From Deltaproteobacteria bacterium (GTDB taxonomy: Bacteria; Desulfobacterota; DSM-4660; Desulfatiglandales; HGW-15), in the NCBI GenBank assembly GCA_020060805.1, contig JAGUZM010000404.1, positions 1 through 21,549 of the forward strand: a stretch of 21,549 nucleotides of DNA. The letters are read 5' to 3'. The translations under genes were made by a program, and so were the position numbers. How positions within the stretch are numbered: the stretch's first letter is position 1; every line of letters begins with the position of its first letter. The notes under the pieces were generated by a model. The model searched no databases. It saw nothing but the letters and a program-made list of their open reading frames with translations, and had not been told where the DNA came from. This document shows positions 203-18,576 of this stretch, piece by piece.

Positions 203-1705
203 TCATTTATCCTTCACCTTGAATTTCAGCCAGTCGAGCATCTCCTGGATATTCTTGGCCATGTACCATCGGCCGTTGGCGAAAGCACCGTAATCAGCCC
301 CTGCCATGGCAGAGGAAAAACGGGTTGAGTTGGCGTAGAAAAGCCACTGCTCAACCCACCTCTTTTCAATCGCTTCGTTAAAGATGCTGTCATTCTGCGC
401 AAGCCCTTTGGCCGCTCCCTTCTCCCAGGCAGCAAGGACGATCTTCGTAGCGGTCAGGGTCATCTCATTGGTCTTTTGTATGGTGTTTTCGAGACGAGCG
501 AAATGCCCGTCCACCCAACCCTGGCTGTGGCAGGAAAGGCAGACCTTTTGCATCGCCTTTCGTCTACGCTCCTGTTCCTTCTGATCGATGAGGTAAGTCG
601 TCGCAGGTTCGCCCGTCAGCTCCGTGGGCAGGGGGAGACCTGCCTTGTTCCGGATGATCGTCGTATCCGGGGAAATCGGGTGGGGATGGGCGTAGATCAG
701 GCCGAAGATCCGCCAGGGCAGGCGGTCATTCATCTGATGGGTTCTTCCGGCGATGGTTTCTCCATCTTCAGAGACGAGCAAGCTCACATGGCACGTGGCG
801 CAGGTCGGCCCGGTGATGTCTTTTCCCACGGTCCAGGGAACGGCGTCATAGTTCCATGAACCGCCGAGGGAGGAATACATGTTGCCGTGCTTGCTCACTT
901 CGTAGACTTTGAAAGCGGGCACATCGGGGCCCTTATGGCACTGAGAGCAGGTGTAGGGTTTTCTGGCCATTTCGATAGAGAACCGATGCCTGGTGTGGCA
1001 TGCGCTGCAAGACCCCTTGCTCCCGTCCGGGTTGACCCTTCCTACGCCCTGATTGGGCCAGCCCGAGAGCACCGGGAAGGTCATCTCACCGTGATCGGTC
1101 TCTCTTGAAACGTTCCCCTTCACGCTGACCACGGTTCCGTGGCAGGACAGGCAGGCATCGGCGGAGGTCAGAGGGTCAGGGGCGCTGAGGGTCGTGCTCA
1201 TCCCTGAGAAGGATTGAATGCCTGTGGCCGACTTGACGAAATCCTTGTAGACCGGGTTGTTTTCCAGGTTGCCGTAGGCATGGGACATCAGGTTTTTGCC
1301 GTACTGACTCCTTTCAGCAGGATGGCAGGTGGCGCAATCCTCAGGTGTCACGACCGTGTGAACCTCAAGGCCGTTGTGGTCGAAGGCATCTTTGTGTTTT
1401 GAAGAATTCATGGTGTGACACTCCGCGCATCCCACCACGACATGGGCAAGGGAATCGGGCAGCGTGTCGTAGGAGACCCTTCTCTCCTTCTCAGGCAGGC
1501 CCTTGGCCGCACCGGGGGTGACTCTGGACATGCGGCTTTTTTTCCAGTCCGCCACGATGCCCGGGTGGAGCGACGCATGGCATTCGAGACAGAAAGCCGT
1601 GTCTTCGCTGATAGGTGGTTCAGCGAAGACTGCCTTTGGGAAAAGGAAAACCGAAACGACAGCAACAAAAAAAAGCTTAGTACAAGCCTTCGTAAATACC
1701 CTCAC
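203..1705 (-). CDS. Periplasmic octaheme-type multiheme cytochrome c (hydroxylamine oxidoreductase-like/OCC superfamily candidate)
   Basis: Eight CxxCH motifs (CLECH, CAECH, CATCH, CLSCH, CSACH, CSQCH, CATCH, CLSCH). GTG at 1705 gives a signal peptide MRVFTKACTKLFFVAVVSVFLFPKAVFA. The track start at 1924 reads through a repeat element and is unlikely to be real. Confidence 0.85.
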   Translation of the reverse strand: MRVFTKACTKLFFVAVVSVFLFPKAVFAEPPISEDTAFCLECHASLHPGIVADWKKSRMSRVTPGAAKGLPEKERRVSYDTLPDSLAHVVVGCAECHTMNSSKHKDAFDHNGLEVHTVVTPEDCATCHPAERSQYGKNLMSHAYGNLENNPVYKDFVKSATGIQSFSGMSTTLSAPDPLTSADACLSCHGTVVSVKGNVSRETDHGEMTFPVLSGWPNQGVGRVNPDGSKGSCSACHTRHRFSIEMARKPYTCSQCHKGPDVPAFKVYEVSKHGNMYSSLGGSWNYDAVPWTVGKDITGPTCATCHVSLLVSEDGETIAGRTHQMNDRLPWRIFGLIYAHPHPISPDTTIIRNKAGLPLPTELTGEPATTYLIDQKEQERRRKAMQKVCLSCHSQGWVDGHFARLENTIQKTNEMTLTATKIVLAAWEKGAAKGLAQNDSIFNEAIEKRWVEQWLFYANSTRFSSAMAGADYGAFANGRWYMAKNIQEMLDWLKFKVKDK

Positions 1706-1708
1706 GTA

Positions 1709-1881
1709 TTCACCACCGAGGCACAGAGGACACGGAGGGGGATATGTTTTTCGTCTATCGGGAGATACCGATAGACGAAAATAATCCTCGTAAGATCTTC
1801 TCGGAGCAGAATATTTTTGTTTGTCGGTATCTCCCGACAAACAAAAACTTTTCTCTGCGCCCTCTGCGTCTCCGTGGTGAA
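1709..1881. repeat. Nested palindromic MITE-like or REP-like element with two internal perfect hairpins
   Basis: Outer imperfect inverted arms TTCACCACCGAGGCACAGAGGACACGGAG (1709-1737) and the reverse complement of 1853-1881 (TTCACCACGGAGACGCAGAGGGCGCAGAG). Internal 14-bp perfect stems at 1748-1781 and 1814-1847. AAGATCTT palindrome at the centre (1792-1799). Confidence 0.8.
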
Positions 1882-1916
1882 CCAAAATTCGTGACGGTAA
1901 TTGTGAAGACCTGACC

Positions 1917-2621
1917 TTAGTCATCAGCTTCTCCTTGTTCGAGACTTCTCAGAGCCCCGATCGCCAGTTCCCCGATCGTATGCTTCTCAAGCCGCTCTCC
2001 CGAGAATATCAACAGCTCAGTATCATCCTGTGTCAAACCCTCGAGCGCTGAGCAGGCCTCACCAACCCGCAGGAGGCCCAAGATTTTGACCGCAAGACCT
2101 CTGTGGGTCGGGTTGGGAGAGTCCAGAAAGGGCCGGAGAAGAGGGAGCGAATTCTTGACAAGGCCGGGACGCACCTCTGCCACCCTTCCTATTCCCCATA
2201 AAACACCCGATTGCAGGACCTCGTTCTCGAGAAGGTTCCCGTCCTCCCTCAGGTACGATATTAGTATATGGGTATATTCCCTTGCAAGCCTGTCATGGGA
2301 GGCAAGGATTTCACCCATCGCCTCGGGAGATCCCCACCCGATGCCGCCCGACTCGTCGTTGAGGTTCCACATCAGCCTGCGCAGGATGACGCGAGCTGCT
2401 TCCATGTCCCCCTCGGCCAGGCTCGCAACCACCGCTCCCATGGCTTTCACAGCGCCCCATTTCAATCTCTCGTCCCCCTCCTGGATCAAGGCAAAAAGGG
2501 GATTAACCGCAACCCGCGGCGGAAACCGGCAGATTTCCTCGATCGCAACGGGCAGGTTCCGTGTTTTCAAGAGTTCCAGAACTCTCTTTTTCAATGCCCG
2601 GCCTTTTGTGGGATGATTCAT
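1917..2621 (-). CDS. HEAT-repeat (PBS-lyase-type) protein, resembling the DVU0298 family
   Basis: 234 aa of helical repeats with 'RFPPRVAVNPLFALIQEGDERLKWGAVKAMGAVVASLAEGDMEAARVILRRLMWNLNDESGGIGWGSPEAMGEI'. Family name is from recall. Confidence 0.7.
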   Translation of the reverse strand: MNHPTKGRALKKRVLELLKTRNLPVAIEEICRFPPRVAVNPLFALIQEGDERLKWGAVKAMGAVVASLAEGDMEAARVILRRLMWNLNDESGGIGWGSPEAMGEILASHDRLAREYTHILISYLREDGNLLENEVLQSGVLWGIGRVAEVRPGLVKNSLPLLRPFLDSPNPTHRGLAVKILGLLRVGEACSALEGLTQDDTELLIFSGERLEKHTIGELAIGALRSLEQGEADD

Positions 2622-5147: not shown

Positions 5148-6032
5148 ATGATCAAGGCCAAGGCAAAGATTAAACCCCTCGATATCATCATAGGCATTGC
5201 CCTGGTGGCGGCAGGAGCGTATGTCACGCACCGGGTCATCGCGGACCTCAACTACAGGTGGGACTGGGCCGCGATACCCCAGTATCTCCTCCGTTACGAC
5301 GAGGAGGAGGGAGGCTGGGTCCCCAACATGCTCCTCCAGGGGCTTTTCATGACCATCAGGCTGAGCGTTTGGGGAACGATTCTCGCCACCCTGATCGGAA
5401 TCGCGATGGGCCTCCTCCGCGTGAGCCGGAGGCTTTTCGGCAGGCTCGTGGCCAGGACCTACGTGGAGGTGATGCGCAACACCCCGCCTCTGGTGCTCAT
5501 CTTCCTGTTCTATTATTTCTTGAGCGGTCAGATCATGACGGTTCTGGGGATCGATACGATCCTGACCGGCCTGTCCGAAGACACGAAGTTCGTCCTCTCC
5601 CTTCTGTTTGGGTCGCCATCCCGATTCTCCGCCTTCACCTCCGCCCTGATTACCCTGGCTATTTTTGAGAGCGCCTACATTACCGAGATCGTCAGGGCGG
5701 GAATCCAGTCGATTGAAAGAGGGGTGTGGGAGGCGGGCTATTCCCTCGGGCTGTCTCGGTGGCAGCTCATGAGACGGGTGATTCTGCCTCTGGCAACGCA
5801 ACGGATCATTCCTCCCCTGGCAGGCCAGTTCATATCCACGATCAAGGATTCCGCGATCGTGTCTGTCATTTCAATCCAGGAGCTGACCTTTCAGGGTATG
5901 GAACTGACGGCCGCCACCTATCTCACCTTCGAGGTGTGGATCACCGTGACCCTCTTGTACCTCGTCCTAACCCTTTCCCTCTCCGTTACCCTGGGTCGGG
6001 TCGAGAAATATCTGAGAAGGAGTGAAGCCTGA
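5148..6032 (+). CDS. Polar amino-acid ABC transporter permease, second subunit
   Basis: Multiple TM segments and the EAA loop 'GLSRWQLMRRVILPLATQRIIPPLAGQFISTIKDSAIVSVISIQEL'. Confidence 0.88.
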   Translation: MIKAKAKIKPLDIIIGIALVAAGAYVTHRVIADLNYRWDWAAIPQYLLRYDEEEGGWVPNMLLQGLFMTIRLSVWGTILATLIGIAMGLLRVSRRLFGRLVARTYVEVMRNTPPLVLIFLFYYFLSGQIMTVLGIDTILTGLSEDTKFVLSLLFGSPSRFSAFTSALITLAIFESAYITEIVRAGIQSIERGVWEAGYSLGLSRWQLMRRVILPLATQRIIPPLAGQFISTIKDSAIVSVISIQELTFQGMELTAATYLTFEVWITVTLLYLVLTLSLSVTLGRVEKYLRRSEA

Positions 6033-7380
6033 GCGCGGGATGACCAAGGAAAATCTACTTACCACGCAACCGATTCCTGAACTGATCCGACGGATCGGCA
6101 TACCCGCCAGCATCGGGTACTTTTTCCACACCATGTACAACGTGGTGGACACCTATTTCGGGGGACTGATCTCCACCCAAGCTCTCGCCTCCCTTTCCCT
6201 GTCTTTCCCGGTATTTTTCATCATCATCGCCATGGGCACGGGTTTTTCTTCAGGAACCACGGCGCTGATCGCAAACGCCCTGGGGGCCGGGAAAGGAGAG
6301 GAGGCACGGGTTCTGGCCGTTCAGAGCATCAGCTTCGGGGTGCTCAGCTCGATCCTGCTGACGGCTTTGGGCCTCCTGATATCGCCCTTCCTTTTCAGGA
6401 TCCTGGGCGCCACAGAAGAATACCTTGCGATGGCTTTAAGCTATATGAACACGATTTTCTGCGGCACGAGCCTCTTCATGCTGGTCTACATGTTCAATGC
6501 GATCCTGAACGGCAAGGGGGAGACGAGGCCTTTTCGAAACTTCCTGATCGCCGCGTTCCTGATGAACATCGTCCTGGATCCCTGGTTCATTTACGGCGGG
6601 CTGGGCGTGCCGGCCATGGGAATCGTGGGTGTGGCTGCAGCCACGGTTCTCATCCAGTTGATCGGGTGCGTGTACCTGGGCCGGAAAGTTCTTCGGTCCG
6701 GCCTGATCGCGATGGCGGACTTCAAGCACGTGATCCCCAGGCTGGGCCCTTTTGTTCAAATCGCCCAGCAGGGATTGCCGGCGAGCCTCAACATGATGAC
6801 CGTGGGGATCGGCATCTTTGTGATCACCTATTTTGTAAGCCATTTTGGAAAAGAGGCGGTGGCAGCTTATGGGGTGGCCATGAGGGTTGAGCAAATGGTG
6901 CTCGTCCCCACGATCGGTCTCAATATCGCAACCCTCACCCTGGTGGCACAAAACAACGGCGCCAAGCTTTTCCATCGCGTCCGCGAAACCCTGCGAACAG
7001 CGTTGACTTATGGCGGCGTGCTCATGGCCGGCGGCGCGGTGGCGCTTCTGATCGGAGCGAGGGTTTTCATCGCCTTTTTTTCCGAGGACCGCTCCGTCCT
7101 TGACATCGGAGCGACCTACCTGAGGATCGATGCCCTCGCCTTGTACGCCTACGTGATCCTATACGTCAATGTGGCGGCCCAGCAGGGGATGAAAAAGCCC
7201 CTGTTCGGCCTCTTCCTCGGGTTGTACCGGCAGATGGTCGCGCCGTTTATCGTCTTCTGGCTTCTGACCCGTGTCCTCGACGTCGGTCTTTTGGGGATCT
7301 GGCTGGGGATATTCGGGATCACATGGAGTGGGGCGGCTTTTTCTATTCTGTACACTCGAAGGCTACTCAGCAGGGTTTAA
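6022..7380 (+). CDS. MATE family efflux transporter
   Basis: 452 aa, ~12 TM, 'YNVVDTYFGGLISTQALASLSLSFPVFFIIIAMGTGFSSGTTALIANALGAG'. Overlaps the upstream permease by 11 bp; start may be ATG 6040. Confidence 0.9.
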   Translation: MKPERGMTKENLLTTQPIPELIRRIGIPASIGYFFHTMYNVVDTYFGGLISTQALASLSLSFPVFFIIIAMGTGFSSGTTALIANALGAGKGEEARVLAVQSISFGVLSSILLTALGLLISPFLFRILGATEEYLAMALSYMNTIFCGTSLFMLVYMFNAILNGKGETRPFRNFLIAAFLMNIVLDPWFIYGGLGVPAMGIVGVAAATVLIQLIGCVYLGRKVLRSGLIAMADFKHVIPRLGPFVQIAQQGLPASLNMMTVGIGIFVITYFVSHFGKEAVAAYGVAMRVEQMVLVPTIGLNIATLTLVAQNNGAKLFHRVRETLRTALTYGGVLMAGGAVALLIGARVFIAFFSEDRSVLDIGATYLRIDALALYAYVILYVNVAAQQGMKKPLFGLFLGLYRQMVAPFIVFWLLTRVLDVGLLGIWLGIFGITWSGAAFSILYTRRLLSRV

Positions 7381-7681: not shown

Positions 7682-7709
7682 ACCCCGTGGGCCCATTGGC
7701 CCATGGGGT
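7682..7709 (-). terminator. Intrinsic terminator downstream of the dodecin gene
   Basis: ACCCCGTGGGCC-CATT-GGCCCATGGGGT hairpin (12 bp, one wobble). The minus-strand sequence after it is a T-tract (reverse complement of CACAAAAAAA). Confidence 0.75.
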
Positions 7710-7728: not shown

Positions 7729-7938
7729 TCAACCCTCGTACTTGAAGGATAGGTTGACCCTTGCCCGGTAGAGCTTGACCTTCCCTTTCTCAACAGTCAT
7801 ATCCAGTTTGGTCACTTCCGCGACTCTCAGATCCCTGAGGGTTCCTGAGGCGGTTTCCACCGCGGTTTTGGCAGCCTCCTCCCAGGATTTATCGCTGGTT
7901 CCCACGAGTTGAACGATGTTGTAGGTACTTGGTCCCAT
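7729..7938 (-). CDS. Dodecin family flavin-binding protein
   Basis: MGPSTYNIVQLVGTSDKSWEEAAKTAVETASGTLRDLRVAEVTKLDMTVEKGKVKLYRARVNLSFKYEG is a canonical dodecin. The ATG at 7938 has SD GAAAGGAGGGG, so the track's longer start (8016) is not favoured. Confidence 0.92.
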   Translation of the reverse strand: MGPSTYNIVQLVGTSDKSWEEAAKTAVETASGTLRDLRVAEVTKLDMTVEKGKVKLYRARVNLSFKYEG

Positions 7939-8077
7939 GTTTCCCCTCCTTTCAAAAATGTGCCTTTTTTCTTGAATTGCCCCAACCGCCGGGCCAGAGA
8001 ATACCCTCCCGGACACGATAAGTCAACAGTCCCTTAAGCCGGCTAAATGACGCGTTACCCCAAGTACACAGCCGAAC

Positions 8078-8759: not shown

Positions 8760-9092
8760 TTAAGAAAACTTCTCAGGCGGTCGCCGCTCGGGAACATATT
8801 GAATCGGGGTTTTTCCTTCATTCCACGCCTTCGAGACATAGAGATTGCAATAACAGCTCCCGAACTCCTTCACATCAGGCACCCGGTAGACGCAAGGGCA
8901 GATGATGTCCTGGTCTTTTAGACGGTCTCCTGACGAGAGCCTGCAAGGGCAACACATATACCCATAGCGTTTCCTGTTTTCGATCAACGAGGCCAGGAGG
9001 TCAAAAACCCTTTCCCTGTCTTTGTTGAAATAATAGCCCTTCGGTTCCTGAACCTTTTTCAGGTTCTCATACAGTTTCTCCACCTCGTTCAT
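8760..9092 (-). CDS. Ferredoxin:thioredoxin reductase catalytic subunit-like [4Fe-4S] protein
   Basis: CPC-x14-CPC-x12-CYC arrangement in 'YMCCPCRLSSGDRLKDQDIICPCVYRVPDVKEFGSCYCNLYVS'. Confidence 0.85.
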   Translation of the reverse strand: MNEVEKLYENLKKVQEPKGYYFNKDRERVFDLLASLIENRKRYGYMCCPCRLSSGDRLKDQDIICPCVYRVPDVKEFGSCYCNLYVSKAWNEGKTPIQYVPERRPPEKFS

Positions 9093-9340
9093 AGTCCGAG
9101 AGCCTCCTTGATCTCTTTCTCCTTGAAGCCCACGATGACCTTATCACCGATGATGATGGTGGGAAAAGAACACCGGGGGTTCAGTTTCCTCACGTCCTCC
9201 AGGATGGCGGTCCTCTCTTCGCCCTCGAGCATATCCACGTCCGTGAATTCGTACTTGACGGCGCATTCGTCCAGGAATTTCTTGGTCGCCTTGCAGTGAC
9301 TGCATGTGCTCAGCGTGTACATCTTGATGCTTTCTTTCAT
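9089..9340 (-). CDS. Glutaredoxin family protein
   Basis: MKESIKMYTLSTCSHCKATKKFLDECAVKYEFTDVDMLEGEERTAILEDVRKLNPRCSFPTIIIGDKVIVGFKEKEIKEALGL with CSHC active site and cis-Pro 'SFPT'. Stop overlaps the FTR start (ATGA). The track start at 9427 is extended. Confidence 0.9.
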   Translation of the reverse strand: MKESIKMYTLSTCSHCKATKKFLDECAVKYEFTDVDMLEGEERTAILEDVRKLNPRCSFPTIIIGDKVIVGFKEKEIKEALGL

Positions 9341-9359: not shown

Positions 9360-10193
9360 TCAGGCTTCGCCTTCCATGAGGCGACCCAGGGATGCAAGAT
9401 GCCTCTTTTCTTCTTCCCCAAGGTCATGAAAGACGGCCTTGCTACGATGGTCTTGGCTTTTCCGTGAATAACGCAGGTAGAGATCGAGGGCCTGGGTTTC
9501 GAGCATCATGGCGATACCCAGGACGTTTTCCCTAGTATTCATCGCTTCCTTATTCTGCTCCATGAACTCCTCGGTCGTGAATCCCCCTTCCATGAGTTTC
9601 GAAACGATGCGGGTTTCGAACTGCCCCTGATCCGTTACGGTCCTATCGAGGGTCTGATACAGGTTGAAGAGCTTTTGGCGGTGATTCTCTTCGATGCCGG
9701 CCAACCGTTTCAGAAGGCTTTTTACCTCTGGCTGAGGGGTGGTTTCCGCGATCGCGGTATACCACTCAGACAACCCGGTCTCCATGCCGTATGCAAGAAC
9801 CACCACCTCCGGCGGCTTTTCATCTCCCTTCAGGTAGGCCATTCCCATTTCCGCTGGGCCGAAGGCTGTTCGGCCCTGCCAGGCGGTAATGCCCCCTTTG
9901 AGGTTGTACACTTCCTTGAAGCCCTCACCGGCCAGGAGTTGCGCAGCAGCACGGCTGCGCGCGCCGGTGGCTCAGTACGCAATCACGGGTTTCTGGGGAT
10001 CGAGTTCCCCATTACGGTTGAGGAGCTCCGGCAAGGGGATCAAAACGGCCCCCGGGATGTGCGACTTTTCGTATTCAGAAGGCTGGCGAACGTCAAGAAG
10101 GGAATAGGTTCCTTCTTTGTGTGTATTGATGTAGGTTTTCGCCTCTTCGGCGTTCATGGTGTTGACGGGTGTGAAAAATTTCAACCACTTCAC
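9360..10193 (-). CDS. Probable selenoprotein: rhodanese domain with Sec (TGA) at the catalytic position, fused to a ferritin-like domain
   Basis: GTG 10193 gives MKWLKFFTPVNTMNAEEAKTYINTHKEGTYSLLDVRQPSEYEKSHIPGAVLIPLPELLNRNGELDPQKPVIAY, then TGA (9974-9972), then in the same frame ATGARSRAAAQLLAGEGFKEVYNLKGGITAWQG and a ferritin-like C-terminus ('AYGMETGLSEWYTAI..', 'IEENHRQKLFNLY', 'LETQALDLYLRYS', 'GEEEKRHLASL'). The TGA replaces the Cys of the usual C-x-x-G-x-R loop. Confidence 0.8.
9926..9971 (-). promoter_or_regulatory. Candidate bacterial SECIS element immediately downstream of the in-frame TGA
   Basis: Minus strand after TGA: GC-CACCGGC-GC-GCGCAGC-CGTGCT-GCTGCGC-AACTCCTG-GCCGGTG. Perfect 7-bp outer stem (9969-9963/9932-9926) and perfect 7-bp inner stem (9960-9954/9947-9941). 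The 6-nt loop begins 19 nt after the TGA and has G as its second nucleotide. Confidence 0.65.
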
Positions 10194-10545: not shown

Positions 10546-10629
10546 CCTCCGTAACGTCCTTCGAGCGGTAAGGGGGCGCTGGGATCGCACCGGGGAAGCC
10601 CCGACAGAACCGATGATGCGGTGGGGAGG
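10546..10629 (+). promoter_or_regulatory. Possible structured 5' leader that could sequester the SD of the MoxR-like gene
   Basis: CCTCC (10546-10550) is complementary to the SD GGAGG (10625-10629). The interior is GC-rich with local hairpins (CCTT..AAGG, CGGGG-AAG-CCCCG). No known riboswitch class recognised. Confidence 0.25.
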
Positions 10630-10640
10630 TGAATCATCTC

Positions 10641-11522
10641 ATGGAAAAAGTGGTCATAGAGGGAGTGGAACTGCACCTGACGCAGCCGGATGACGTTCCC
10701 ATGGTTTGGGTCGGCCAGGATGAGCTTGTCACCCAGGTCCTGGCAGCATGGCTCGTCATCGGCGACGATGATTTGCCCCTCCATCCGAGGCTCGTTGGAA
10801 AACCGGGCGTCGGCAAAACCACCCTGGCCTACCATGCGGGCCGTAAGCTCGGGAAACCGGTGTACCTTTACCAGGCGACGATGGACACGCGGCCGGAGGA
10901 CCTCATCGTGACCCCGGTGATCTCGGAAGCGGGCAAGATCAAGTACATGGCAAGCCCCATCGTTTCAGCCATGATCAAAGGGGGTGTGGCGGTCATCGAC
11001 GAAGGAAACAGGATGAGCGAGAAAAGCTGGGCCTCCCTCGCGCCGCTGATGGACAGCAGGCGCTACGTGGAATCCGTCGTTGCAGGAATCAAGATCAAAG
11101 CCCATCCCGAGTTCAGGCTCTGCACAACCATGAACGATGACGCCAGCACCTTTGAGCTTCCGGATTACATCCATTCGAGGCTCCAGCCGCAGATCTTCAT
11201 CGACTTTCCGGAAAGGGATGAAGAACTCCTCATCCTCAGGGCCAATCTGCCCTTTGCCGAGGAGGGGGTCCTGCAGTACGTGGTGGATTTTCTGCAGGCT
11301 GCCCATGAAATGGATGAGCGCTATTCGGTCAGGGACGGGATCAACATCGCCCGGTACGCCTTGAAAAGGCTTGTGGAGAGCGGCGAACGCCTCACCTCCC
11401 AGGAGCGGACGGAGAGGGTCGTTCAGTACATGAAAGAGGCTGCCACGATGATCCTGGATCCCAACGCCGCCCGGTATTTCAAGGACACGGTGGACTCCGG
11501 CGATGACGAAGAACAGGATTGA
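10641..11522 (+). CDS. MoxR-like AAA+ ATPase (AAA_5 type)
   Basis: Walker A 'GKPGVGKTTL', Walker B 'GGVAVIDEGNRM', sensor region 'FRLCTTMNDD'. ATG 10641 with upstream GGGAGG; GTG 10629 is the alternative. Confidence 0.85.
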   Translation: MEKVVIEGVELHLTQPDDVPMVWVGQDELVTQVLAAWLVIGDDDLPLHPRLVGKPGVGKTTLAYHAGRKLGKPVYLYQATMDTRPEDLIVTPVISEAGKIKYMASPIVSAMIKGGVAVIDEGNRMSEKSWASLAPLMDSRRYVESVVAGIKIKAHPEFRLCTTMNDDASTFELPDYIHSRLQPQIFIDFPERDEELLILRANLPFAEEGVLQYVVDFLQAAHEMDERYSVRDGINIARYALKRLVESGERLTSQERTERVVQYMKEAATMILDPNAARYFKDTVDSGDDEEQD

Positions 11523-13332
11523 GTGGAAAAACATCCGCTTTGTGCCTGTCCTTCACGGGCGGATGGAATTGGCCCTGGAGGTGAGGAGACAGTTCCGGGA
11601 GTTCAAGCCCGACCAAGTGGCGGTGGAATACCCCCATACCCTGCAGGACCAGATCCTTCGAGGAGTCAAGAGACTCCCCCTTCTCTCCGTTGTCTATTAT
11701 CAGGAGAGCGACGGCGCCTTCATTTACCTCCTTCTGGAGCCGACAGATCCGCTGGTGGAGGCTGTCAGGCTCGCCCTGGAAAACAACGTTCCGGTTCACT
11801 TCGTAGACCGGGACACGGAAGGCTATCCCCTTGATCGGTCCCCTATGCCTGACCCGTATGCGATCACCCGCATCGGTCATTACCTCTTCTGCCAGGCTTA
11901 CCTCAAGACCCGGGAGGGCGAGATGCCGTTCCTGGAAGACTCCCTCCGGGAGAAGACGATGGCCTACCATCTCCAGCGGCTGAACAGAGCAGGGGGGAAG
12001 ACCCTTTTCGTGGGCGGCCTGTACCACCTCCCCGGGATTCTTTCCAACATCGAAGGGCCCCAGGCGGAGGTAATCGGCAGGAAGCACAGGGAAGGGGCTG
12101 GACTGGCCCATCTACATCAGGACTCCAGCGCGGAAGTGTTGACAGAAATGCCCTTTCTGGTGGCAAGGTATGAGCGCTTCAGGGGTGCAGGGGGCGCGGA
12201 AGACCCTGACAGGCTCAAGGTTCATAACGAACTCATCGGCCTTGCCCGCAGGAGCCACTGGAAGAACAACAAAGAGGAATTATCCCGCCTTCAGGTCAGG
12301 ATCATGCACAAGTTTGCCAGGAACTATGCCCTTGTCACGGGCGGGCTGGTGCCCAGTTTCTACCAGCTCCTCGTGGCTGCCCGGGGAGCTGCGGATGACA
12401 ATTTTGCGTATGAACTTTGGGAAAAGGGGAGCGAATACCCGTGGCAGGCAGAGCAGCCCGGGCTGCCCATCATGCGCCTCAGCGGTGAGGATCTTTTCCT
12501 CGACCAGAAAAGGATACGATTCCACCGGAGGCTGAAGGCCTTCCGCAGGCGCCTGGTTCCGGTTCCCGTGAAGAAGAGGATAAGGGAGAAGACCCCGGGG
12601 GAATGGAAGAAAAGCTTCGACCACCTCTTCATCTGCTCTTATCCGCCCGAGGACGTGGTCGTGGAGGGTTACGGCCAATACCTCCAGAAAAAGGCCCTGG
12701 AGATCAAGTCTGAGGAGAACAGCCGGAGCGTTCCTTTTGTCAGTTCCATGATGGATGGGATCGATATCCGGGAGACCGTCAGGAACTGGGCCGAAGCGAA
12801 GATCTACGTGAAGGAGGGGAGGCCTATCCGGGGGAAGGTGGGATCCGTGGTCATGATTTTTGACCCTGACATGGCGGGAAAGGACGGGAAGGAAAATTTT
12901 CCCTGGAAGGTCACCTGGCTCGGTGAGCACGAACAGGAATCAGACATGGCTTTTTACAGCACCCCGGCCGGCGGCGTCATGGACGGGCCGGGTATTTCCC
13001 GGTGCCAGTACGGAGGCTTCATGCTCACCTATCCTCCGCTGAGGGTTTTGGATATATGGCAGGATCCCTTTTTCAACGTGGCGAGGAATAAACCGGAAAG
13101 GCTTCTCATGGCCGCCATAGACTACAGCGCGGAAAAACATGTGGTCTACGTCGCAGCCGACCCTCCCTCGGGATGGTGCCAGACCATGGCCGCGAAGCTG
13201 GGAAAGAAGATCATCTACATGCCCATCGGCGTTTTTTCTCCCGTGGCTCTGAAAAAGATCCGCCAGTTCCACGTCCTTGCCGGCCACCACGTCCGCAGGT
13301 ACGCCAAGCAGTACATCAAAACCGCCTCATGA
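11503..13332 (+). CDS. TraB/PrgY/GumN-like domain protein with large uncharacterised C-terminal region
   Basis: 609 aa. N-terminus 'IRFVPVLHGRMELALEVRRQFREFKPDQVAVEYPHTLQD....VPVHFVDRD....LFVGGLYHLPGI' resembles the TraB/GumN/ChaN-like fold. Overlaps the ATPase CDS by 20 bp. Confidence 0.55.
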   Translation: MTKNRIEWKNIRFVPVLHGRMELALEVRRQFREFKPDQVAVEYPHTLQDQILRGVKRLPLLSVVYYQESDGAFIYLLLEPTDPLVEAVRLALENNVPVHFVDRDTEGYPLDRSPMPDPYAITRIGHYLFCQAYLKTREGEMPFLEDSLREKTMAYHLQRLNRAGGKTLFVGGLYHLPGILSNIEGPQAEVIGRKHREGAGLAHLHQDSSAEVLTEMPFLVARYERFRGAGGAEDPDRLKVHNELIGLARRSHWKNNKEELSRLQVRIMHKFARNYALVTGGLVPSFYQLLVAARGAADDNFAYELWEKGSEYPWQAEQPGLPIMRLSGEDLFLDQKRIRFHRRLKAFRRRLVPVPVKKRIREKTPGEWKKSFDHLFICSYPPEDVVVEGYGQYLQKKALEIKSEENSRSVPFVSSMMDGIDIRETVRNWAEAKIYVKEGRPIRGKVGSVVMIFDPDMAGKDGKENFPWKVTWLGEHEQESDMAFYSTPAGGVMDGPGISRCQYGGFMLTYPPLRVLDIWQDPFFNVARNKPERLLMAAIDYSAEKHVVYVAADPPSGWCQTMAAKLGKKIIYMPIGVFSPVALKKIRQFHVLAGHHVRRYAKQYIKTAS

Positions 13333-13464: not shown

Positions 13465-13953
13465 TCAAACTACGGCATTAGAACCCCTTTCTGCCTGTAG
13501 ATGAGTCTTCAAAACGTAAAGGATCTGGACCTCCAAAGGCCTCATTTCTTCTTCACTGAGCGCCCGGATCTGGGCGAAAAGATCAGGATAAAGCTTAAAG
13601 TTTATGATTACCTCCAAATCGGGCCGTGGCTGCATTTTCTCAGGGCGGTCCTTACTAACCTTCACCTTTTTCCCTGTTCCCCTGGAGGCCAACGTCTTGC
13701 GCTTTAAGCGCATGCACTCGGAACACAAACGGTGCGAAGGAGTGATCGTCTGCCGTTGCTCGCACTCTTCACATAATCTGACCGGCTTCTCCTCCATATT
13801 GCTTTGCCCTCGTCTTAGTTCAACCACAAACGGATCTTCTTCACGCTCTCTTTCTACTCTCTCCCCACAGCTTTCGCATCTTAGTGACCTTGTTCTTCCA
13901 TGAACCAATCTACTCAGGCAGGCCGAATAGTGAACACACTCAGGATCGCGCAT
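13465..13953 (-). CDS. Phage-associated protein with several CxxC zinc-binding pairs
   Basis: 162 aa: 'RCESCGERVE', 'RLCEECEQRQTITPSHRLCSECMRLKRK', plus an N-terminal 'ECVHYSAC'. Confidence 0.5.
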   Translation of the reverse strand: MRDPECVHYSACLSRLVHGRTRSLRCESCGERVEREREEDPFVVELRRGQSNMEEKPVRLCEECEQRQTITPSHRLCSECMRLKRKTLASRGTGKKVKVSKDRPEKMQPRPDLEVIINFKLYPDLFAQIRALSEEEMRPLEVQILYVLKTHLQAERGSNAVV

Positions 13954-13976
13954 TTCAAAAGACTCGGCAAATCGAA

Positions 13977-15875
13977 CTAGACCAACTTAGCCTCCCTCAA
14001 CTCTACCAATATCCGGCTGCGACCATATTTGATTGCGCTGGCGAGGCCTTCATCGATTCGGCGTATAAGGTCTTCACTGCCTCCACCGGCGATATTAATG
14101 CTTCCAACGTCGAAATTCAAAATCATCCCGGCTGCCCCGCGCCCCATAGCCGCACCGCCGCTCACACCCTTCAGAACTTCGAACTGGGCTTCAAGAAGTT
14201 GCTTGCTTAGACCGTAGGCCTCTTTTTCTCCAGCGCCCGCATACATCCTGTAAGTCGTCACGTCGGTGAGAGGCCCGAAATCCCTGATCGCCCTGATCGT
14301 CGCCTGCATCGATGCTGTGAGGCTCGCTACTCCGGTAAGGTCGAGGGCATCCTGTATGACGCCACCTACACCCCGAAGGTCGTCCATCATTTCCTGTATC
14401 CCCACGGCCCAGGGCTTTGCAGGAGATTTCTTAATTTGAGGCTCGAACACGAAAGGATTCCGGCCCTCCTCCGCCGCCATGTAGTCAAAAAATTGGGCTG
14501 TACTCTGTGTCGCCTGAGCGATGCTCTCGCTTGCGTTTTGAGCAGCCTCCTGGATCGAATTGATAGTATCGACCACCTTCTCAGCGGCTGCCGAATAAGA
14601 TCCAGGCTGTGAAATAGGCATTCTCACAAAAGGACCTCCGGTCTCCGATGTGCTTTCTATCCCAGAAAGAAGCCTCTTCAGTTCAGGGAAATTGGAAAAC
14701 GCATACTCGCTCAAGCTCAGCTTTCCTGCCGCTACCGCCTGTGCTCCCTTGACCGAATTCTGTACTGCCTCGATGAGATGAAGTCCTGCTCCAAAAACAG
14801 CAAGCCCTTTTTTGCCGAATACGATTGCTGCTACAACTCCTCCCTCCTGAATCCACCCAGGAAGCGATTGAAACGTTTTATAAAGCTCTTCGCCTTTCGT
14901 TATTATTTTCGGCAGATACCTATCCGCGATGTCCGCCAATGAACCCACCGTCCTCACCAATCCCTTCGCCAAATCCAAGATCTCGTCAGCAGTCTTTTTT
15001 GCCCACTCTTGAAGTTTCCCTTCCGAATGAAGTTTATCCACCCGATCCACAACGCCTGCGAGGAAGGTTTCTAGTGACTTCATGACACCGGATTTCATCA
15101 CGAGGCGCTCAAACTCAGTCCAGTAGCTTTTGAGGCTCTCGGTCATTCCCGACCACGTCTTTTGTATCTTCTCTGACTGTCCACCGTAACGCTCCTGCAG
15201 ACCTTCGAATATTGCCTGCACTGCCGCCTTTGCGTTCAGGCTCGACGTCTCCACCTCGCCGAATTTCTTTTTTAGAATGTCGAACACCGGGACACCACGC
15301 TCTGCGAGCTGCATCAGCTCTTCTGCGCTCACCTTTCCTTTCGTGGCAATTTGCGCGAGAGCCCTGGCGATGCCCTGTAAAGTCTCTTCCGTGCCGCCCA
15401 ATGCGCTCATCGTATCGACAAGAATCGTCATCTGCTTAGTGGTTGGATCAAGCCCCATCGCCTTCATCATGATGAAGGTCTCAACCGCCTTCTGGGTATT
15501 CACAGGCATTTTGAGAGCCCACTCATTTAGCATCCTGAAGGTTTCTTCACCTTTCCCTTTTGTAAGAGTGTCAAGGCTGAGCGTCATCTTGTCGAACGAA
15601 GCAGCCGTGTTTACAAAACCAGAGGCAATCCGTTCTAGACGCCATCCCACAAAGGCCGTGGCCGCTATAGTTTTAAGGTTCACAAGCGACTTCCTGACTT
15701 CGCCGATCCTGCCCTTCACACCATCAAAGAGATTCTGGACCCGTTGCAGCCCAGGAGCGGCGCTTGTCCCGACCCCGGAAAGGTTCTTCGATGCGCCGTC
15801 GGTAAACTTCTTGATGTCAGCAAGGGCCTTGTCCACAGCGGCTTTCACGATGATCTCGACCGTATTCTCAGGCAT
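13977..15875 (-). CDS. Phage tail tape measure protein
   Basis: 632 aa. 'LVDTMSALGGTEETLQGIARALAQIATKGKVSAEELMQLAERGVPVFDILKKKFG' is the characteristic tape-measure N-terminal domain. Helical/hydrophobic body. Confidence 0.88.
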   Translation of the reverse strand: MPENTVEIIVKAAVDKALADIKKFTDGASKNLSGVGTSAAPGLQRVQNLFDGVKGRIGEVRKSLVNLKTIAATAFVGWRLERIASGFVNTAASFDKMTLSLDTLTKGKGEETFRMLNEWALKMPVNTQKAVETFIMMKAMGLDPTTKQMTILVDTMSALGGTEETLQGIARALAQIATKGKVSAEELMQLAERGVPVFDILKKKFGEVETSSLNAKAAVQAIFEGLQERYGGQSEKIQKTWSGMTESLKSYWTEFERLVMKSGVMKSLETFLAGVVDRVDKLHSEGKLQEWAKKTADEILDLAKGLVRTVGSLADIADRYLPKIITKGEELYKTFQSLPGWIQEGGVVAAIVFGKKGLAVFGAGLHLIEAVQNSVKGAQAVAAGKLSLSEYAFSNFPELKRLLSGIESTSETGGPFVRMPISQPGSYSAAAEKVVDTINSIQEAAQNASESIAQATQSTAQFFDYMAAEEGRNPFVFEPQIKKSPAKPWAVGIQEMMDDLRGVGGVIQDALDLTGVASLTASMQATIRAIRDFGPLTDVTTYRMYAGAGEKEAYGLSKQLLEAQFEVLKGVSGGAAMGRGAAGMILNFDVGSINIAGGGSEDLIRRIDEGLASAIKYGRSRILVELREAKLV

Positions 15876-15901
15876 CTTTTATCCTCCCCTTCTTCCCTCA
15901 T

Positions 15902-16267
15902 TCAGAGTGGCTTGTAACATCCTCTCACCCTTCTTCTCATGCACAGGCTACAGATATACCACTCGTTATTAAGCTCTTGCCCATCCATAATTCCGAGCAT
16001 CTCAAAAGCCCATCTATCCGCCGCCAACTCTTCCGCCTCATCTGGCCCATCGAACTTGTTAATGAGAACGTGCTTTATTTCGTGGAACAGAACGAAAAAA
16101 GCTAAATATGGGCACTTCAGGTTGTGTGGAGAGATGAGGATTCGGAAACTGCCGTCGCGGAATCTGTGCGCTTCCCCGGCATGATTGTTTTCTAGGTCGC
16201 AGACCATCACGTATCTGATACTTTGGCAATGGTCTTTTGCAATAGAAGTCAGGAAGTCATTTATCAT
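15902..16267 (-). CDS. ImmA/IrrE-like (M78) metallopeptidase domain protein
   Basis: 'YLAFFVLFHEIKHVLINKFDGPDEAEELAADRWAFEMLGI' has HExxH followed by the downstream E..AD..A helix. Confidence 0.7.
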   Translation of the reverse strand: MINDFLTSIAKDHCQSIRYVMVCDLENNHAGEAHRFRDGSFRILISPHNLKCPYLAFFVLFHEIKHVLINKFDGPDEAEELAADRWAFEMLGIMDGQELNNEWYICSLCMRRRVRGCYKPL

Positions 16268-16350
16268 CGATCACCCTTTCTTTGTAGAAGGAGGGCCTGA
16301 GCGGGAAAGAAGGAGGAAACCCGCTCAGGCCAGCACATGGCTGCGACGTG

Positions 16351-17526
16351 CTATGAGACCACGGACTTGTAAGCTGATCGGTATTCGACCAAGGCTCCTT
16401 GATACTCGTGCCTGACCTTGTAGAGCCACGCATCCCCTTTAAATGCAGCCTCGCTCAGTGAGTCATCAACGATGATTTCCGGTTCCTCTCGCCCGTTCAG
16501 ATAAGACATTTCGATGCAACCGACATCCTCAACAGGGCGAATGATGCCCCAATCATTCGTGTCGCTTAAGAAGGAGATGATTGCGATTCGCTCATTCTTC
16601 TCCCCGAAGAGGCCGCGAACTGAGTTTATGGTTTTGGTTGTCAGATCATTTCCCGTGTAATAAGAATCGAGTTGGTTGACGCGCACAGCCGTATCCCAGA
16701 GTGAAAGCGGCACAGCAAGCCACCATTTGCCGCCGAGATTGATCCCTATCTTTTCGTTGCTCGGCGAACCCTCGGTCATGTCGCCCAAGGCGCCAACACC
16801 CGTAACCACGGCTGCGATTGAAAGCGCCCCAGATCCAAGGTTCCCATGCCCTCCGGTAAACCAGGCCGTTCCATCCGAACAATTTGCGTTGGAGGTGAAA
16901 AAACTCCAAACGTGTTTAGCATGCGTCCTTCTAGCAGCCCTCGCTACACGGTTAAGGAGTGCTCGCACAAGCCCGATGTTCTCGTTTATCATGCATATTC
17001 TTGTAATCTTAATAACCAGGCCTCGGGTAGTGATTGAGTAGGAAGCCTGTTCATCCCCAAAAGGCGCTATTGCGCCATAATCAGCCGCTTCCGGGTCAAC
17101 GGTCGGGATATCGCTCAAATATCCGAACCTCACAGCCTTAATGCTTCTGAAGTCTTTAGCGGATCGCTTTAAGCCGATCAGGGCGGCCTCATGGAAATCA
17201 ATATCAGCGTACTCTTTGGCCAACCCGACGTGGAGAGCGTTTTGCAATGCGTAGTCAAAGCTGGAGGAGTTGAAATCCTGGCATGATCGAAGATCCGCGT
17301 CCACCCGGTTTGAGTAGAATAACCCCCGCATTTCTACGTCGCCGGTGAAAAACTCATACGCAGGCCGCAAACCAGCGAAGGCAGGTATACCGTTGGAATC
17401 GAACCAGGGATTAATGAGCTTGGTGAGAGCTGCCCTGGCTTTGTCGAGCGCCGTCCGGCCCACTTCGAGCGATGAGTAATACACAGTCCGTTCAATGTCC
17501 CTCAAAAGTTTTTCCTTGCTGTCCAT
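16351..17526 (-). CDS. Major capsid/head subunit-like protein (Mu-like prophage type)
   Basis: 391 aa. 'FFTGDVEMRGLFYSNRVDADLRSCQDFNSSSFDYALQNALHVGLAKEYADIDFHEAALIGLKRSAKDFRSIKAVRFGYLSDIPTVDPEAADYGAIAPFGDEQASYSITTRGLVIKITRICMINENIGLVRALLNRVARAARRTHAKHVWSFF' resembles C-terminal head-protein domains seen in Mu-like prophages. Confidence 0.6.
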   Translation of the reverse strand: MDSKEKLLRDIERTVYYSSLEVGRTALDKARAALTKLINPWFDSNGIPAFAGLRPAYEFFTGDVEMRGLFYSNRVDADLRSCQDFNSSSFDYALQNALHVGLAKEYADIDFHEAALIGLKRSAKDFRSIKAVRFGYLSDIPTVDPEAADYGAIAPFGDEQASYSITTRGLVIKITRICMINENIGLVRALLNRVARAARRTHAKHVWSFFTSNANCSDGTAWFTGGHGNLGSGALSIAAVVTGVGALGDMTEGSPSNEKIGINLGGKWWLAVPLSLWDTAVRVNQLDSYYTGNDLTTKTINSVRGLFGEKNERIAIISFLSDTNDWGIIRPVEDVGCIEMSYLNGREEPEIIVDDSLSEAAFKGDAWLYKVRHEYQGALVEYRSAYKSVVS

Positions 17527-17578
17527 TTTAGTCCTCCTGCGTGGCCTACAAACCGACCACGGTGATATTTAATGTCAC

Positions 17579-17890
17579 TTATTGCTTCGCTTGATCGGCC
17601 CTAGCTTCACCGGATATTCGCACAGGCTCGGATCTCGCCTCCGCATCCCTCGGCCTTCTTTGGCCCAACTTTGAATCCCAGATCATTTCCTGCTTTGGGG
17701 GAATGCCCGTTTTCTGAACGTCTGTTAACTTGACAGATGCAGGCGCTCCCTTCTTATGGCGGATCTTTGCCCCTCCGTGCGTAACGATCACGATTTCGCC
17801 TGTAGTCTCATCAAACCTTTGAGCGAATACATGTTCCTCTCGAAGGCCATAGACCTTCAGCGTCTCTTGGAATCCTTTTTCATCTCTCAT
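17579..17890 (-). CDS. Hypothetical protein in Mu-like element
   Basis: 103-aa ORF in consistent orientation and spacing between neighbouring element genes. Confidence 0.5.
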   Translation of the reverse strand: MRDEKGFQETLKVYGLREEHVFAQRFDETTGEIVIVTHGGAKIRHKKGAPASVKLTDVQKTGIPPKQEMIWDSKLGQRRPRDAEARSEPVRISGEARADQAKQ

Positions 17891-17895
17891 TTTCC

Positions 17896-18162
17896 CTATA
17901 CCCCCTCGATCTCAAATTTGATGGTGTATTCTCGTCCTCTCGCTGTCATGAACTGAAGAATTGCCATCCGGTTCAGCATGAGTATCTCTCCACGTTTCCC
18001 CATTACGTTGTATTCGATCGTAATCCCTTTTCGTAAATCAACATCCAGCCGGATAGGATACGATTTCTTAATGCCATTAGTGGTAACGTGCAAAATCGCC
18101 CTCGGGTAAGAGTCAAGAAGCGCCAGAATCTCCTCCAATTCTGTTTGCGTATACTCGTCCAT
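17896..18162 (-). CDS. Hypothetical protein in Mu-like element
   Basis: MDEYTQTELEEILALLDSYPRAILHVTTNGIKKSYPIRLDVD... from ATG 18162 with SD GGGAGGAAG. The track start at 18186 is TTG within the hairpin arm. Confidence 0.6.
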   Translation of the reverse strand: MDEYTQTELEEILALLDSYPRAILHVTTNGIKKSYPIRLDVDLRKGITIEYNVMGKRGEILMLNRMAILQFMTARGREYTIKFEIEGV

Positions 18163-18177
18163 CTTCCTCCCAACAAA

Positions 18178-18283
18178 AAAGCCCAATTGTGCGTGAGATC
18201 CCCTTCGGGGACTTCCTGAGAACCCCTCCGAGGATTTTCTGAGATCCTGCCCAAGGACCTCATGACCGCAACAATTGGGCTTT
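18178..18283 (-). ncRNA. Candidate structured RNA or attenuator: three 23-nt hairpin repeats enclosed by a 13-bp stem
   Basis: Outer arms AAAGCCCAATTGT/ACAATTGGGCTTT (18178-18190/18271-18283). Units on the minus strand: GGTCCTTGGGCAGGATCTCAGAA, AATCCTCGGAGGGGTTCTCAGGA, AGTCCCCGAAGGGGATCTCACGC. T6 tract after the 3' arm, then SD. Confidence 0.65.
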
Positions 18284-18347
18284 ACTTTACGACTAAACTA
18301 CCCGGCAACTGCAGACCGTCAGCTACCGACCACAACACAGTTAAACT

Positions 18348-18572
18348 TTACTCGCGACCATGTCCCTCCACTTCCGCGACCATGTCCCTCCACTTCTGAA
18401 GTTCTGAGACTATGCCGGTGAACTCCCACAAAAACCAGCTTGCCTCTCTGTTCGCTTTCATGACCCGCTTATAGTCGAACAATGGAATGCTATCCACTTT
18501 TGCACGCAACTCATCTAACCACGCGGGATTGACATACCTAAATTTCTCGCCTCTGGGCCTCTTCGTTTTCAT
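18348..18572 (-). CDS. Small hypothetical protein in Mu-like element
   Basis: 74 aa, MKTKRPRGEKFRYVNPAWLDELRAKVDSIPLFDYKRVMKANREASWFLWEFTG..., 4 bp after the stop of the upstream wHTH gene. Confidence 0.55.
   Translation of the reverse strand: MKTKRPRGEKFRYVNPAWLDELRAKVDSIPLFDYKRVMKANREASWFLWEFTGIVSELQKWRDMVAEVEGHGRE
18353..18396. repeat. Perfect tandem duplication of 22 bp at the 3' end of the 74-aa ORF
   Basis: CGCGACCATGTCCCTCCACTTC at 18353-18374 and 18375-18396. Confidence 0.95.
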
Positions 18573-18576
18573 ATTA

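Follow-up and report, generated by a model that had tools for sequence, protein, structure and literature searches.

A predicted selenocysteine-containing rhodanese fused to a rubrerythrin-type di-iron domain in Desulfobacterota

The DNA analyzed here is a 21,549 nt stretch from a Deltaproteobacteria bacterium (GenBank assembly GCA_020060805.1, contig JAGUZM010000404.1) and is referred to as the window. Two open reading frames (ORFs) are found on its minus strand at 9972..10193 (73 aa, GTG start) and 9360..9911 (183 aa), and both lie in the same frame. Translation of positions 10193..9360 gives MKWLKFF...PQKPVIAY, a TGA stop, then ATGARSRAAAQLLAGEGFKEVYNLKGGITAWQG...GEA and the terminal stop. 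The TGA at positions 9974..9972 is the sole internal stop, and there is no frameshift before the terminal TGA. The two ORFs very probably represent one gene, which would encode a selenoprotein of 277 residues with UGA74 decoded as selenocysteine (Sec). The features of this gene and of its neighbors on the same strand are listed in Table 1.

Table 1. Positions of the predicted selenoprotein gene, its parts and the adjoining same-strand features in the window
Feature	Position	Strand	Basis or detail
Complete predicted selenoprotein gene, 277 codons plus stop	9360..10193	minus	Single frame; full-length homologues ~277 aa, start MKW.QF.TP
GTG start	10193..10191	minus	Predicted selenoprotein gene
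In-frame TGA, codon 74, predicted Sec, in rhodanese active-site loop U-A-T-G-A-R-S	9974..9972	minus	Cys column of homologues
Terminal TGA stop	9362..9360	minus	Predicted selenoprotein gene
Rhodanese domain, residues 23-106	9876..10127	minus	PF00581, E 4e-24; matches to solved rhodanese domains
SECIS-type (selenocysteine insertion sequence) hairpin in coding sequence	9941..9960	minus	7-bp stem GCGCAGC/GCUGCGC, 6-nt loop CGUGCU
Rubrerythrin-type di-iron four-helix bundle, residues 129-272	9378..9809	minus	PF02915, E 3e-11; ligand columns invariant
Glutaredoxin-like protein, 83 aa, CSHC motif	9089..9340	minus	PF00462, E 6e-14; 20 nt downstream of predicted selenoprotein gene; also a called gene
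Ferredoxin-thioredoxin reductase (FTR) catalytic (beta) subunit-like protein, 110 aa	8760..9092	minus	PF02943, E 1e-18; 4-nt overlap with glutaredoxin stop
Second, stand-alone rubrerythrin/ferritin-like protein, 176 aa	8078..8608	minus	PF02915, E 1.5e-13
Dodecin ORF, last of the same-strand run	7729..8016	minus	PF07311, E 4e-22
Terminator-like hairpin after dodecin	7703..7688	minus	Terminator scan; such sites not enriched over shuffles

The internal TGA is located within a conserved protein domain. The joined protein, with Cys placed at residue 74, was scanned against Pfam. The rhodanese profile PF00581 matches with 85.4 bits (cut-off 22.2 bits) over a domain that spans the TGA, and PF02915 matches with 44.1 bits (cut-off 22.8 bits), covering profile positions 1–136 of 137. 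A protein search found 2075 homologues with E<=1e-5; the full-length ones listed are ~277 aa and have both Pfam domains on one chain. At the position of the TGA, Cys is present in all 32 full-length homologues that were aligned with the window protein (YCAxGGRSR) and in 105 of 106 sequences of a larger alignment made without it. The remaining sequence has a W, which is probably a TGA translated as Trp by the gene caller. Cys forms are the majority in the protein databases.

These data bear on the possibility that the gene is genuinely split, i.e., that a 73-aa fragment ends at UGA74 and the ferritin-like part is translated separately from the GTG at position 9911. Gene callers give exactly these two products, which are also those of the database annotation, and some termination at Sec-UGA codons is normal in bacterial Sec decoding, a point that also counts in favor of a split. 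However, a 73-aa piece would comprise only half the rhodanese fold, with no active-site loop, as the Pfam domain crosses the TGA, and the 183-aa ORF has V95 as its first codon, midway through the rhodanese domain and within the conserved block EVYNLKGG. The 60 nt that separate the two pieces encode the conserved AxGxRSRxAAQ in frame, and the listed full-length homologues carry the two domains on a single polypeptide. A genuine split is very unlikely. An initial annotation of this DNA had read the two ORFs as one frame with a TGA between them, had placed the TGA at the catalytic Cys of a rhodanese and had followed the frame into a ferritin-like domain. The first point is borne out to the base by the translation of 10193..9360, and the third by the Pfam Rubrerythrin match at residues 129–272. 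The second agrees with the Cys counts given above.

The TGA is not confined to the window. One genome per species was searched with a DNA pattern made up of TGA and, after it, the back-translated motif A-x-G-[GA]-R-S ... N-x-x-G-G-x-x-[AG]-W, and at least 120 species genomes matched. Counts of Sec-form loci given here and below refer to the 120 pattern matches listed. All 120 represent the same rhodanese/rubrerythrin fusion, with 75–100 aa, the TGA and then ~200–207 aa in frame wherever the stored DNA allows. The hosts of the matches listed are almost all Desulfobacterota, a group reported to be rich in selenoproteins (PMC1976440). Cultured carriers include Desulfosarcina alkanivorans PL12, Desulfospira joergensenii DSM 10085, Desulforhopalus singaporensis DSM 12130 and Desulfopila sp. 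IMCC35006. When the same pattern was used with TGY in metagenomes, the fusion was found in only 24 of the 120 matches listed, the rest being mostly stand-alone rhodaneses. Since the TGY matches are mostly stand-alone and the TGA matches are all fusions, the TGA in this motif context is a property of the family and not noise. The recurrence of the same TGA at the same column, with an open frame on both sides, in at least 120 other genomes is far beyond chance. The window protein is ~62% identical to the nearest Sec form and to the nearest Cys form alike, and a comparison of the sequences indicates that lineages switch between Sec and Cys.

A second alternative is a pseudogene or a sequencing or assembly error, in which a change of TGC or TGT to TGA has inactivated, or seems to have inactivated, an ordinary Cys-form gene. 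One base change would suffice, the Cys forms are the commonest in the protein databases, and the source is a metagenome-assembled genome in which the Sec machinery is unverified. Against this, a second NCBI assembly contig (GCA_020062885.1, locus L001) is identical over the gene, TGA included, and the same 183-aa fragment has been called on a third contig in IMG. The downstream frame and all invariant residues are intact, the other genomes have the TGA at exactly the same codon, and the hairpin whose maintenance is specific to Sec forms is present here with a perfect stem of 7 bp. A pseudogene or an error is highly improbable. The initial annotation had likewise argued against random decay, and this holds in view of the Cys in the homologues, the Sec-form orthologues in at least 120 genomes and the conserved SECIS-type hairpin.

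The stem of this hairpin begins 11 nt after the UGA, and the loop begins 18 nt after it. A gap of 11 nt between UGA and stem is the spacing reported as required in E. coli. The stem is built from codons R79-S80 and A83-A84, with one flanking nucleotide added on each side (the G of codon 78, the C of codon 85), and in the window all seven of the seven pairs form in the family register. The minimum free energy (MFE) fold is an alternative hairpin with 9 pairs, a bulged U and a CGU triloop, with a delta G of -17.6 kcal/mol. The published bacterial SECIS (bSECIS) model has an upper stem of 4–16 bp with an apical loop of 3–9 nt, a G at loop position 1 or 2 with G or U after it, a distance of 16–37 nt from UGA to loop, and an MFE <= -7.5 kcal/mol (PMC13188914). 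The window hairpin lies within all four of these published constraints and has a G at loop position 2, then a U. It resembles the E. coli fdhF-type SECIS in its place, immediately behind the UGA and within the coding sequence, and in having G followed by U at the start of its apical loop; its spacing also fits the bSECIS model (PMC13188914). It differs in that there is no sequence similarity and in that the window family has two alternative stem registers.

Comparison of the Sec and Cys forms shows that the hairpin is maintained in the Sec forms and to a much smaller extent in the Cys forms. Codon 83 is GCU, the partner of the AGC of Ser80, in 97 of 121 Sec forms vs 5 of 24 Cys fusions; for GCG at codon 84, the partner of the CGC of Arg79, the counts are 68 of 121 vs 5 of 24. 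Continuous stems of 5 bp or more are found in 114/120 Sec forms, 6/24 Cys fusions and 9/95 other rhodaneses. The mean continuous stem is 6.0 bp in the Sec forms, 3.9 bp in the Cys fusions and 2.8 bp in the other rhodaneses (Mann-Whitney p = 2e-9), but the Sec forms and the Cys forms were drawn from separate collections and lack phylogenetic independence, so that p-values overstate the significance. In the 120-sequence alignment 82% of the cells pair, and none of 500 shuffles reaches the observed pairing. The same alignment has CG-to-AU double substitutions at two stem pairs (22 cells). Pair C24-G37 of alignment A3 is changed to A-U in loci L020, L035, L104, L107 and L121, where Ala84 becomes Ser (CGA...UCG); this compensatory change in the RNA appears to have been bought at an amino-acid cost. 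There are two stem registers. One is found in 99 sequences and the other, GAGCCGC / GCGGCUC, in 21, and the presence of a different register in these 21 sequences suggests selection for the hairpin as such.

A further possibility is that Trp, Cys or Gly, and so a standard amino acid, is inserted at UGA74 through an alternative code or near-cognate suppression. It is favored by a W at this position in some database entries of the family (P0105) and by the fact that some callers have applied UGA=Trp. However, TGA terminates both the neighboring glutaredoxin gene and the selenoprotein gene itself, and throughout the rest of the window it serves as a normal stop. The code is therefore standard, and recoding of codon 74 must be context-dependent. 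A Trp in place of the catalytic Cys would kill rhodanese chemistry, and the hosts of the matches listed are overwhelmingly from the selenoprotein-rich Desulfobacterota (PMC1976440). A position-specific hairpin, moreover, is a hallmark of SelB-dependent decoding (PMC13188914). A standard amino acid at this codon is highly improbable.

In the selenocysteine reading, UGA74 would be decoded by the bacterial Sec machinery (SelB with Sec-tRNASec), directed by the downstream in-frame hairpin. Several results weigh against this reading. None of selA, selB, selC and selD is present among the scanned ORFs of the 21.5-kb window, a tRNA scan of the window gave no tRNA gene and so no tRNA-Sec, and an Rfam gathering scan of the whole window gave no family match. 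The folding energy of the hairpin is ordinary when compared with shuffles of this GC-rich sequence (z = -0.3 and -0.9), and the support from the hairpin is therefore comparative only. The mean MFE after the TGA barely separates Sec forms (-11.9 kcal/mol) from Cys forms (-11.2 kcal/mol), whereas in-register pairing and codon choice do separate them. The dependence between the sequence sets mentioned above is to be added to these points.

The active-site loop of the family has the form Y-C/U-A-x-G-G/A-R-S-R. In the window protein the loop is U-A-T-G-A-R-S, which is of the catalytically active rhodanese type (C/U-x-x-G-x-R-[ST]). Residues R36, G77, R79 and S80 are invariant in the window protein and 106 Cys-form homologues. 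The window protein also has the di-iron ligand set E ... ExxH ... E ... ExxH. The candidate ligands are E138, E168-x-x-H171, E232 and E262-x-x-H265, to which an invariant E202 is added; E138, E168, H171, E202, E232, E262 and H265 are all invariant in the same 107 sequences. In the window protein and 109 full-length Sec forms, the ligands are kept in 107–110 of 110. Cys is absent from the whole window protein, and Sec74 would therefore be its only thiol- or selenol-type residue. The homologues show a similar pattern, in that 95 of 106 Cys forms have exactly one Cys, the active-site residue, and 89 of 109 Sec forms have none. Residue 74 thus appears to be the single reactive chalcogen of the family. 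The N-terminal part is best described, from its sequence, as a single-domain rhodanese of the GlpE/PspE (COG0607) type with Sec replacing the catalytic Cys.

The C-terminal part has similarities to rubrerythrin (e.g., Desulfovibrio vulgaris Rbr) and to "erythrin"-type proteins, with which it shares the four-helix bundle, the E, ExxH, E, ExxH ligands and an end-to-end PF02915 match. The di-iron site of rubrerythrins reduces H2O2. The window protein differs from rubrerythrin in having a rhodanese domain at the N-terminus and no rubredoxin-like domain at the C-terminus; helix C has a single Glu (E232) where the classical form has ExxE, and E202 is an extra invariant residue. A rubredoxin-like Fe(Cys)4 domain with two CxxC pairs is absent from the window protein. 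This rules out a classical rubrerythrin and leaves a rubrerythrin-type di-iron domain only. An AlphaFold2 model of homologue P0002 (62% identical) displays an alpha/beta rhodanese domain followed by four long helices, with a predicted local distance difference test (pLDDT) score of 81 and a predicted template modeling (pTM) score of 0.66; that the model is of the homologue and not of the window protein lessens its weight. Among the solved structures searched, none covers both a rhodanese and a rubrerythrin-type domain.

The nearest solved relatives are rhodanese domains, some of them fused to persulfide-handling redox enzymes (5ve3, 3icr, 3nta and 8a56). Like the window protein, the persulfide dioxygenase-rhodanese fusion BpPRF (5ve3), CoADR-RHD (3icr), the NADH-dependent persulfide reductase (3nta) and the CoA-persulfide reductase (8a56) have a single rhodanese domain tethered to a metal or flavin redox domain, with a catalytic Cys in the rhodanese. 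The partner in these proteins is a mono-iron metallo-beta-lactamase fold or a flavoprotein, whereas in the window protein it is a di-iron ferritin-like bundle. In the window protein, moreover, the rhodanese is N-terminal and the catalytic residue is predicted to be Sec. The Cys-form fusions are annotated in IMG as 'rhodanese-related sulfurtransferase/rubrerythrin' and at NCBI as 'sulfurtransferase' or 'rhodanese-like domain-containing protein'. They share the ~277 aa length, the two domains, 50–62% identity and the invariant active-site and di-iron residues, and differ in having Cys where the window has TGA and in a weaker downstream hairpin.

Sec-containing rhodanese-related sulfurtransferases have been catalogued since 2005 (PMC13188914, PMC9312934, PMC1976440). 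Five forms of Sec rhodanese-like proteins are catalogued, UxxS, UxxG (twice), CxU and UxxxxU (PMC13188914). The UxxG form, first reported by Zhang & Gladyshev 2005, occurs in abundance among deltaproteobacterial symbionts (PMC1976440, PMC9312934). With the joined protein, every NCBIfam model stays below its cut-off. Form 1 (UxxS) is not applicable, as the window motif U-A-T-G is UxxG. Form 3 (NF041203, rhodanese_LYCAU, CxU) scores 41.8 bits against a 115-bit cut-off, and the window motif is Y-U-A. Form 5 (TsoB, NF045694, UxxxxU, a DsbD-like fusion) scores 25.3 bits against a cut-off of 805 bits, and the window protein has one Sec only. A further comparison is with form 2 (UxxG, COG0607 type; example MBM9537886.1). 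Both have a single rhodanese domain of the COG0607/GlpE/PspE type in which Sec takes the position of the catalytic Cys, the UxxG motif, Desulfobacterota hosts and a bSECIS directly downstream. Form 2, however, is described as a rhodanese domain only, whereas the window protein adds a di-iron domain; the word rubrerythrin occurs 0 times in PMC13188914, PMC9312934 and PMC1976440. The window protein is probably the catalogued UxxG form, a match by motif, domain type and host range only. Should form 2 lack the di-iron domain, the Sec fusion would constitute a selenoprotein family not yet catalogued, with members in at least 120 species. The novelty claimed by the initial annotation was overstated, given the Sec-rhodaneses catalogued since 2005 and the more than 2000 database homologues of the fusion.

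The predicted selenoprotein gene is followed in the window by genes for a glutaredoxin-like and an FTR beta-like protein (Table 1). The best NCBIfam match of the glutaredoxin-like protein is the YruB family, with 55.7 bits and thus below the 88.55 cut-off. As a side observation, the NCBIfam matches of these two proteins, all below cut-off, include selenoprotein-bearing families (Uxx-star glutaredoxin-like; FtrB double-selenoprotein); in the window (8760..9340, minus strand) both proteins are Cys forms. A promoter and terminator scan gave results near the chance level. The initial annotation had read these neighbors as fitting a thiol-redox/stress operon. The genes do adjoin in the window, but glutaredoxin and FTR-beta genes adjoin the Sec-form gene in only 3 of the 120 other loci listed. 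One of these, L071, shares the whole neighborhood of the gene, including a divergent AAA_5 ATPase and a 609-aa protein. In the other two, L057 and L076, the glutaredoxin and FTR genes are upstream, and the remaining 117 of 120 loci have neither. The association is therefore lineage-specific and not a property of the family, and a conserved thiol-redox operon as a family property is rejected.

Other genes are found near the Sec-form loci more often. Clustering of neighbor ORFs yielded many spurious antisense ORFs, and only clusters checked with Pfam or NCBIfam were used, a ~715-aa protein aside. In 21 loci, e.g., at L121:3841..4957 and also in L002, L016, L020 and L024, the next gene downstream, on the same strand, encodes a Pyr_redox_2 flavoprotein of ~370 aa; in 2 further loci a member of the same cluster precedes the Sec-form gene closely. 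The best NCBIfam match of this flavoprotein is TIGR03169 'Nterm_to_SelD', which is full-length with E 5e-75 and 253 bits, below the 310-bit cut-off. A tandem-nitroreductase protein of ~500 aa is upstream on the same strand in most of the 20 loci that have it. The ~715-aa protein is found ~1.8 kb downstream in 12 loci and, judged by eye, resembles a DedA-type membrane domain joined to a disulfide reductase of the MerA/Lpd type. Peroxiredoxin and rubrerythrin genes are occasional neighbors. The common theme of these neighbors is disulfide, flavin and di-iron redox chemistry.

The rest of the window contains genes of other types. Divergent from the selenoprotein gene, on the plus strand at 10629..13332, are a 297-aa ATPase of AAA_5 type (MoxR/GvpN-like) and, overlapping it at its own start, the 609-aa protein, which has no Pfam or NCBIfam match; both are kept beside the gene in L071, with 86% and 76% identity. 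A run of phage-type genes occupies 13465..21549 on the minus strand and looks like a Mu-like transposable prophage. It includes a tape-measure protein (13977..15875), a phage capsid protein (16351..17526), an AAA_22/TniB-like ATPase (19038..19814) and a Mu-type transposase (rve, Mu-transpos_C; 19807..21549) that runs off the window end. At 203..1924 (minus strand) is a multihaem c-type cytochrome of 573 aa with matches to several CxxCH-family Pfam profiles, and a MatE efflux protein is at 6022..7380 (plus strand).

A mechanism may be proposed by analogy. The rhodanese selenol would carry sulfane sulfur or a related adduct (Se-S-), or would cycle through Se-OH / Se-S-R, and the Sec-rhodanese would act as a substrate- or electron-delivery arm for the tethered di-iron centre. 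It would then stand in for the rubredoxin domain, the electron donor to the peroxidase site of rubrerythrin. The delivery-arm model is suggested because rhodanese domains elsewhere are fused to a persulfide dioxygenase, a CoA-disulfide reductase and a persulfide reductase. As there is no resolving Cys, recycling of the Sec would have to be intermolecular, by a partner. In the window lineage the most evident candidate is a chain from ferredoxin to the FTR-like Fe-S disulfide reductase and on to the CxxC glutaredoxin-like protein, the last two presumably being a co-transcribed pair. The net role may be peroxide or oxygen reduction, or persulfide turnover, in an anaerobe. This enzymology is put forward tentatively, as one possibility; no member of the fusion family was found in the papers searched, which weighs against it.

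A different role, selenium handling, has some basis in the neighboring genes. Here the rhodanese residue would serve to hold selenium, or to reduce it, in an adduct of perselenide type, and the purpose would be either delivery toward selenophosphate synthesis or detoxification. The Nterm_to_SelD-type flavoprotein adjoins in 21 + 2 loci, about a fifth of those listed, and the DedA/MerA-like protein (by eye) is present in 12. Two points of background speak for this role: in vitro, selenium can be bound by rhodanese as a perselenide, and there is a reported link between DedA proteins and the uptake of selenite. However, the flavoprotein is below the TIGR03169 cut-off, no selD was seen adjacent, and the association is limited to about a fifth of the listed loci and is absent from the window. 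In addition, many homologues are Cys forms, some of them from lineages not known to use selenium (Nitrospirota, Scalinduaceae, KSB3). Selenium handling is unlikely. To return to the delivery-arm model, the rhodanese(Sec/Cys)-di-iron fusion could represent an uncharacterized enzyme class in which a single selenol or thiol replaces rubredoxin as the entry point to the di-iron site and is recycled by partners, a proposal that must be considered doubtful. If it is true, persulfide, perselenide or disulfide chemistry would be coupled to peroxide or oxygen reduction or to sulfane-sulfur oxidation. The recyclers would be glutaredoxin and FTR in the window lineage and, elsewhere, the SelD-associated-type flavoprotein and the membrane-anchored disulfide-reductase-like protein.

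In the public collections the gene is divided. NCBI and IMG hold it as a 73-aa piece (IMG 'rhodanese-related sulfurtransferase') and a 183- or 162-aa piece, the 162-aa one being an IMG 'rubrerythrin', and in this the initial annotation was correct in calling the gene unannotated in the source record. In entry P0105 the catalytic residue is replaced by W (YWAAGRRSR), and the 90% cluster of this entry contains 73-aa sulfurtransferase pieces and 163–196-aa 'rubrerythrin' pieces alongside 276–318-aa read-through products; the Sec form has therefore been mis-called in several ways across public collections. The record should carry one 277-aa selenoprotein and not two fragments, and the same split affects the family in many Desulfobacterota genomes.

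The gene is ordinary in kind, i.e., a mis-split selenoprotein gene of a common Desulfobacterota family. No new principle is involved, as Sec-for-Cys replacement in rhodaneses and SECIS hairpins in coding regions are both established. The remaining interest is in the uncharacterized pairing of a Sec-rhodanese with a di-iron domain. The family has many members, shows strong conservation and has yet to be studied; it combines one reactive chalcogen residue with a complete di-iron ligand set. The switching between Sec and Cys, together with the existence of cultured carriers, would make it a convenient natural system for determining what selenium adds to rhodanese chemistry.

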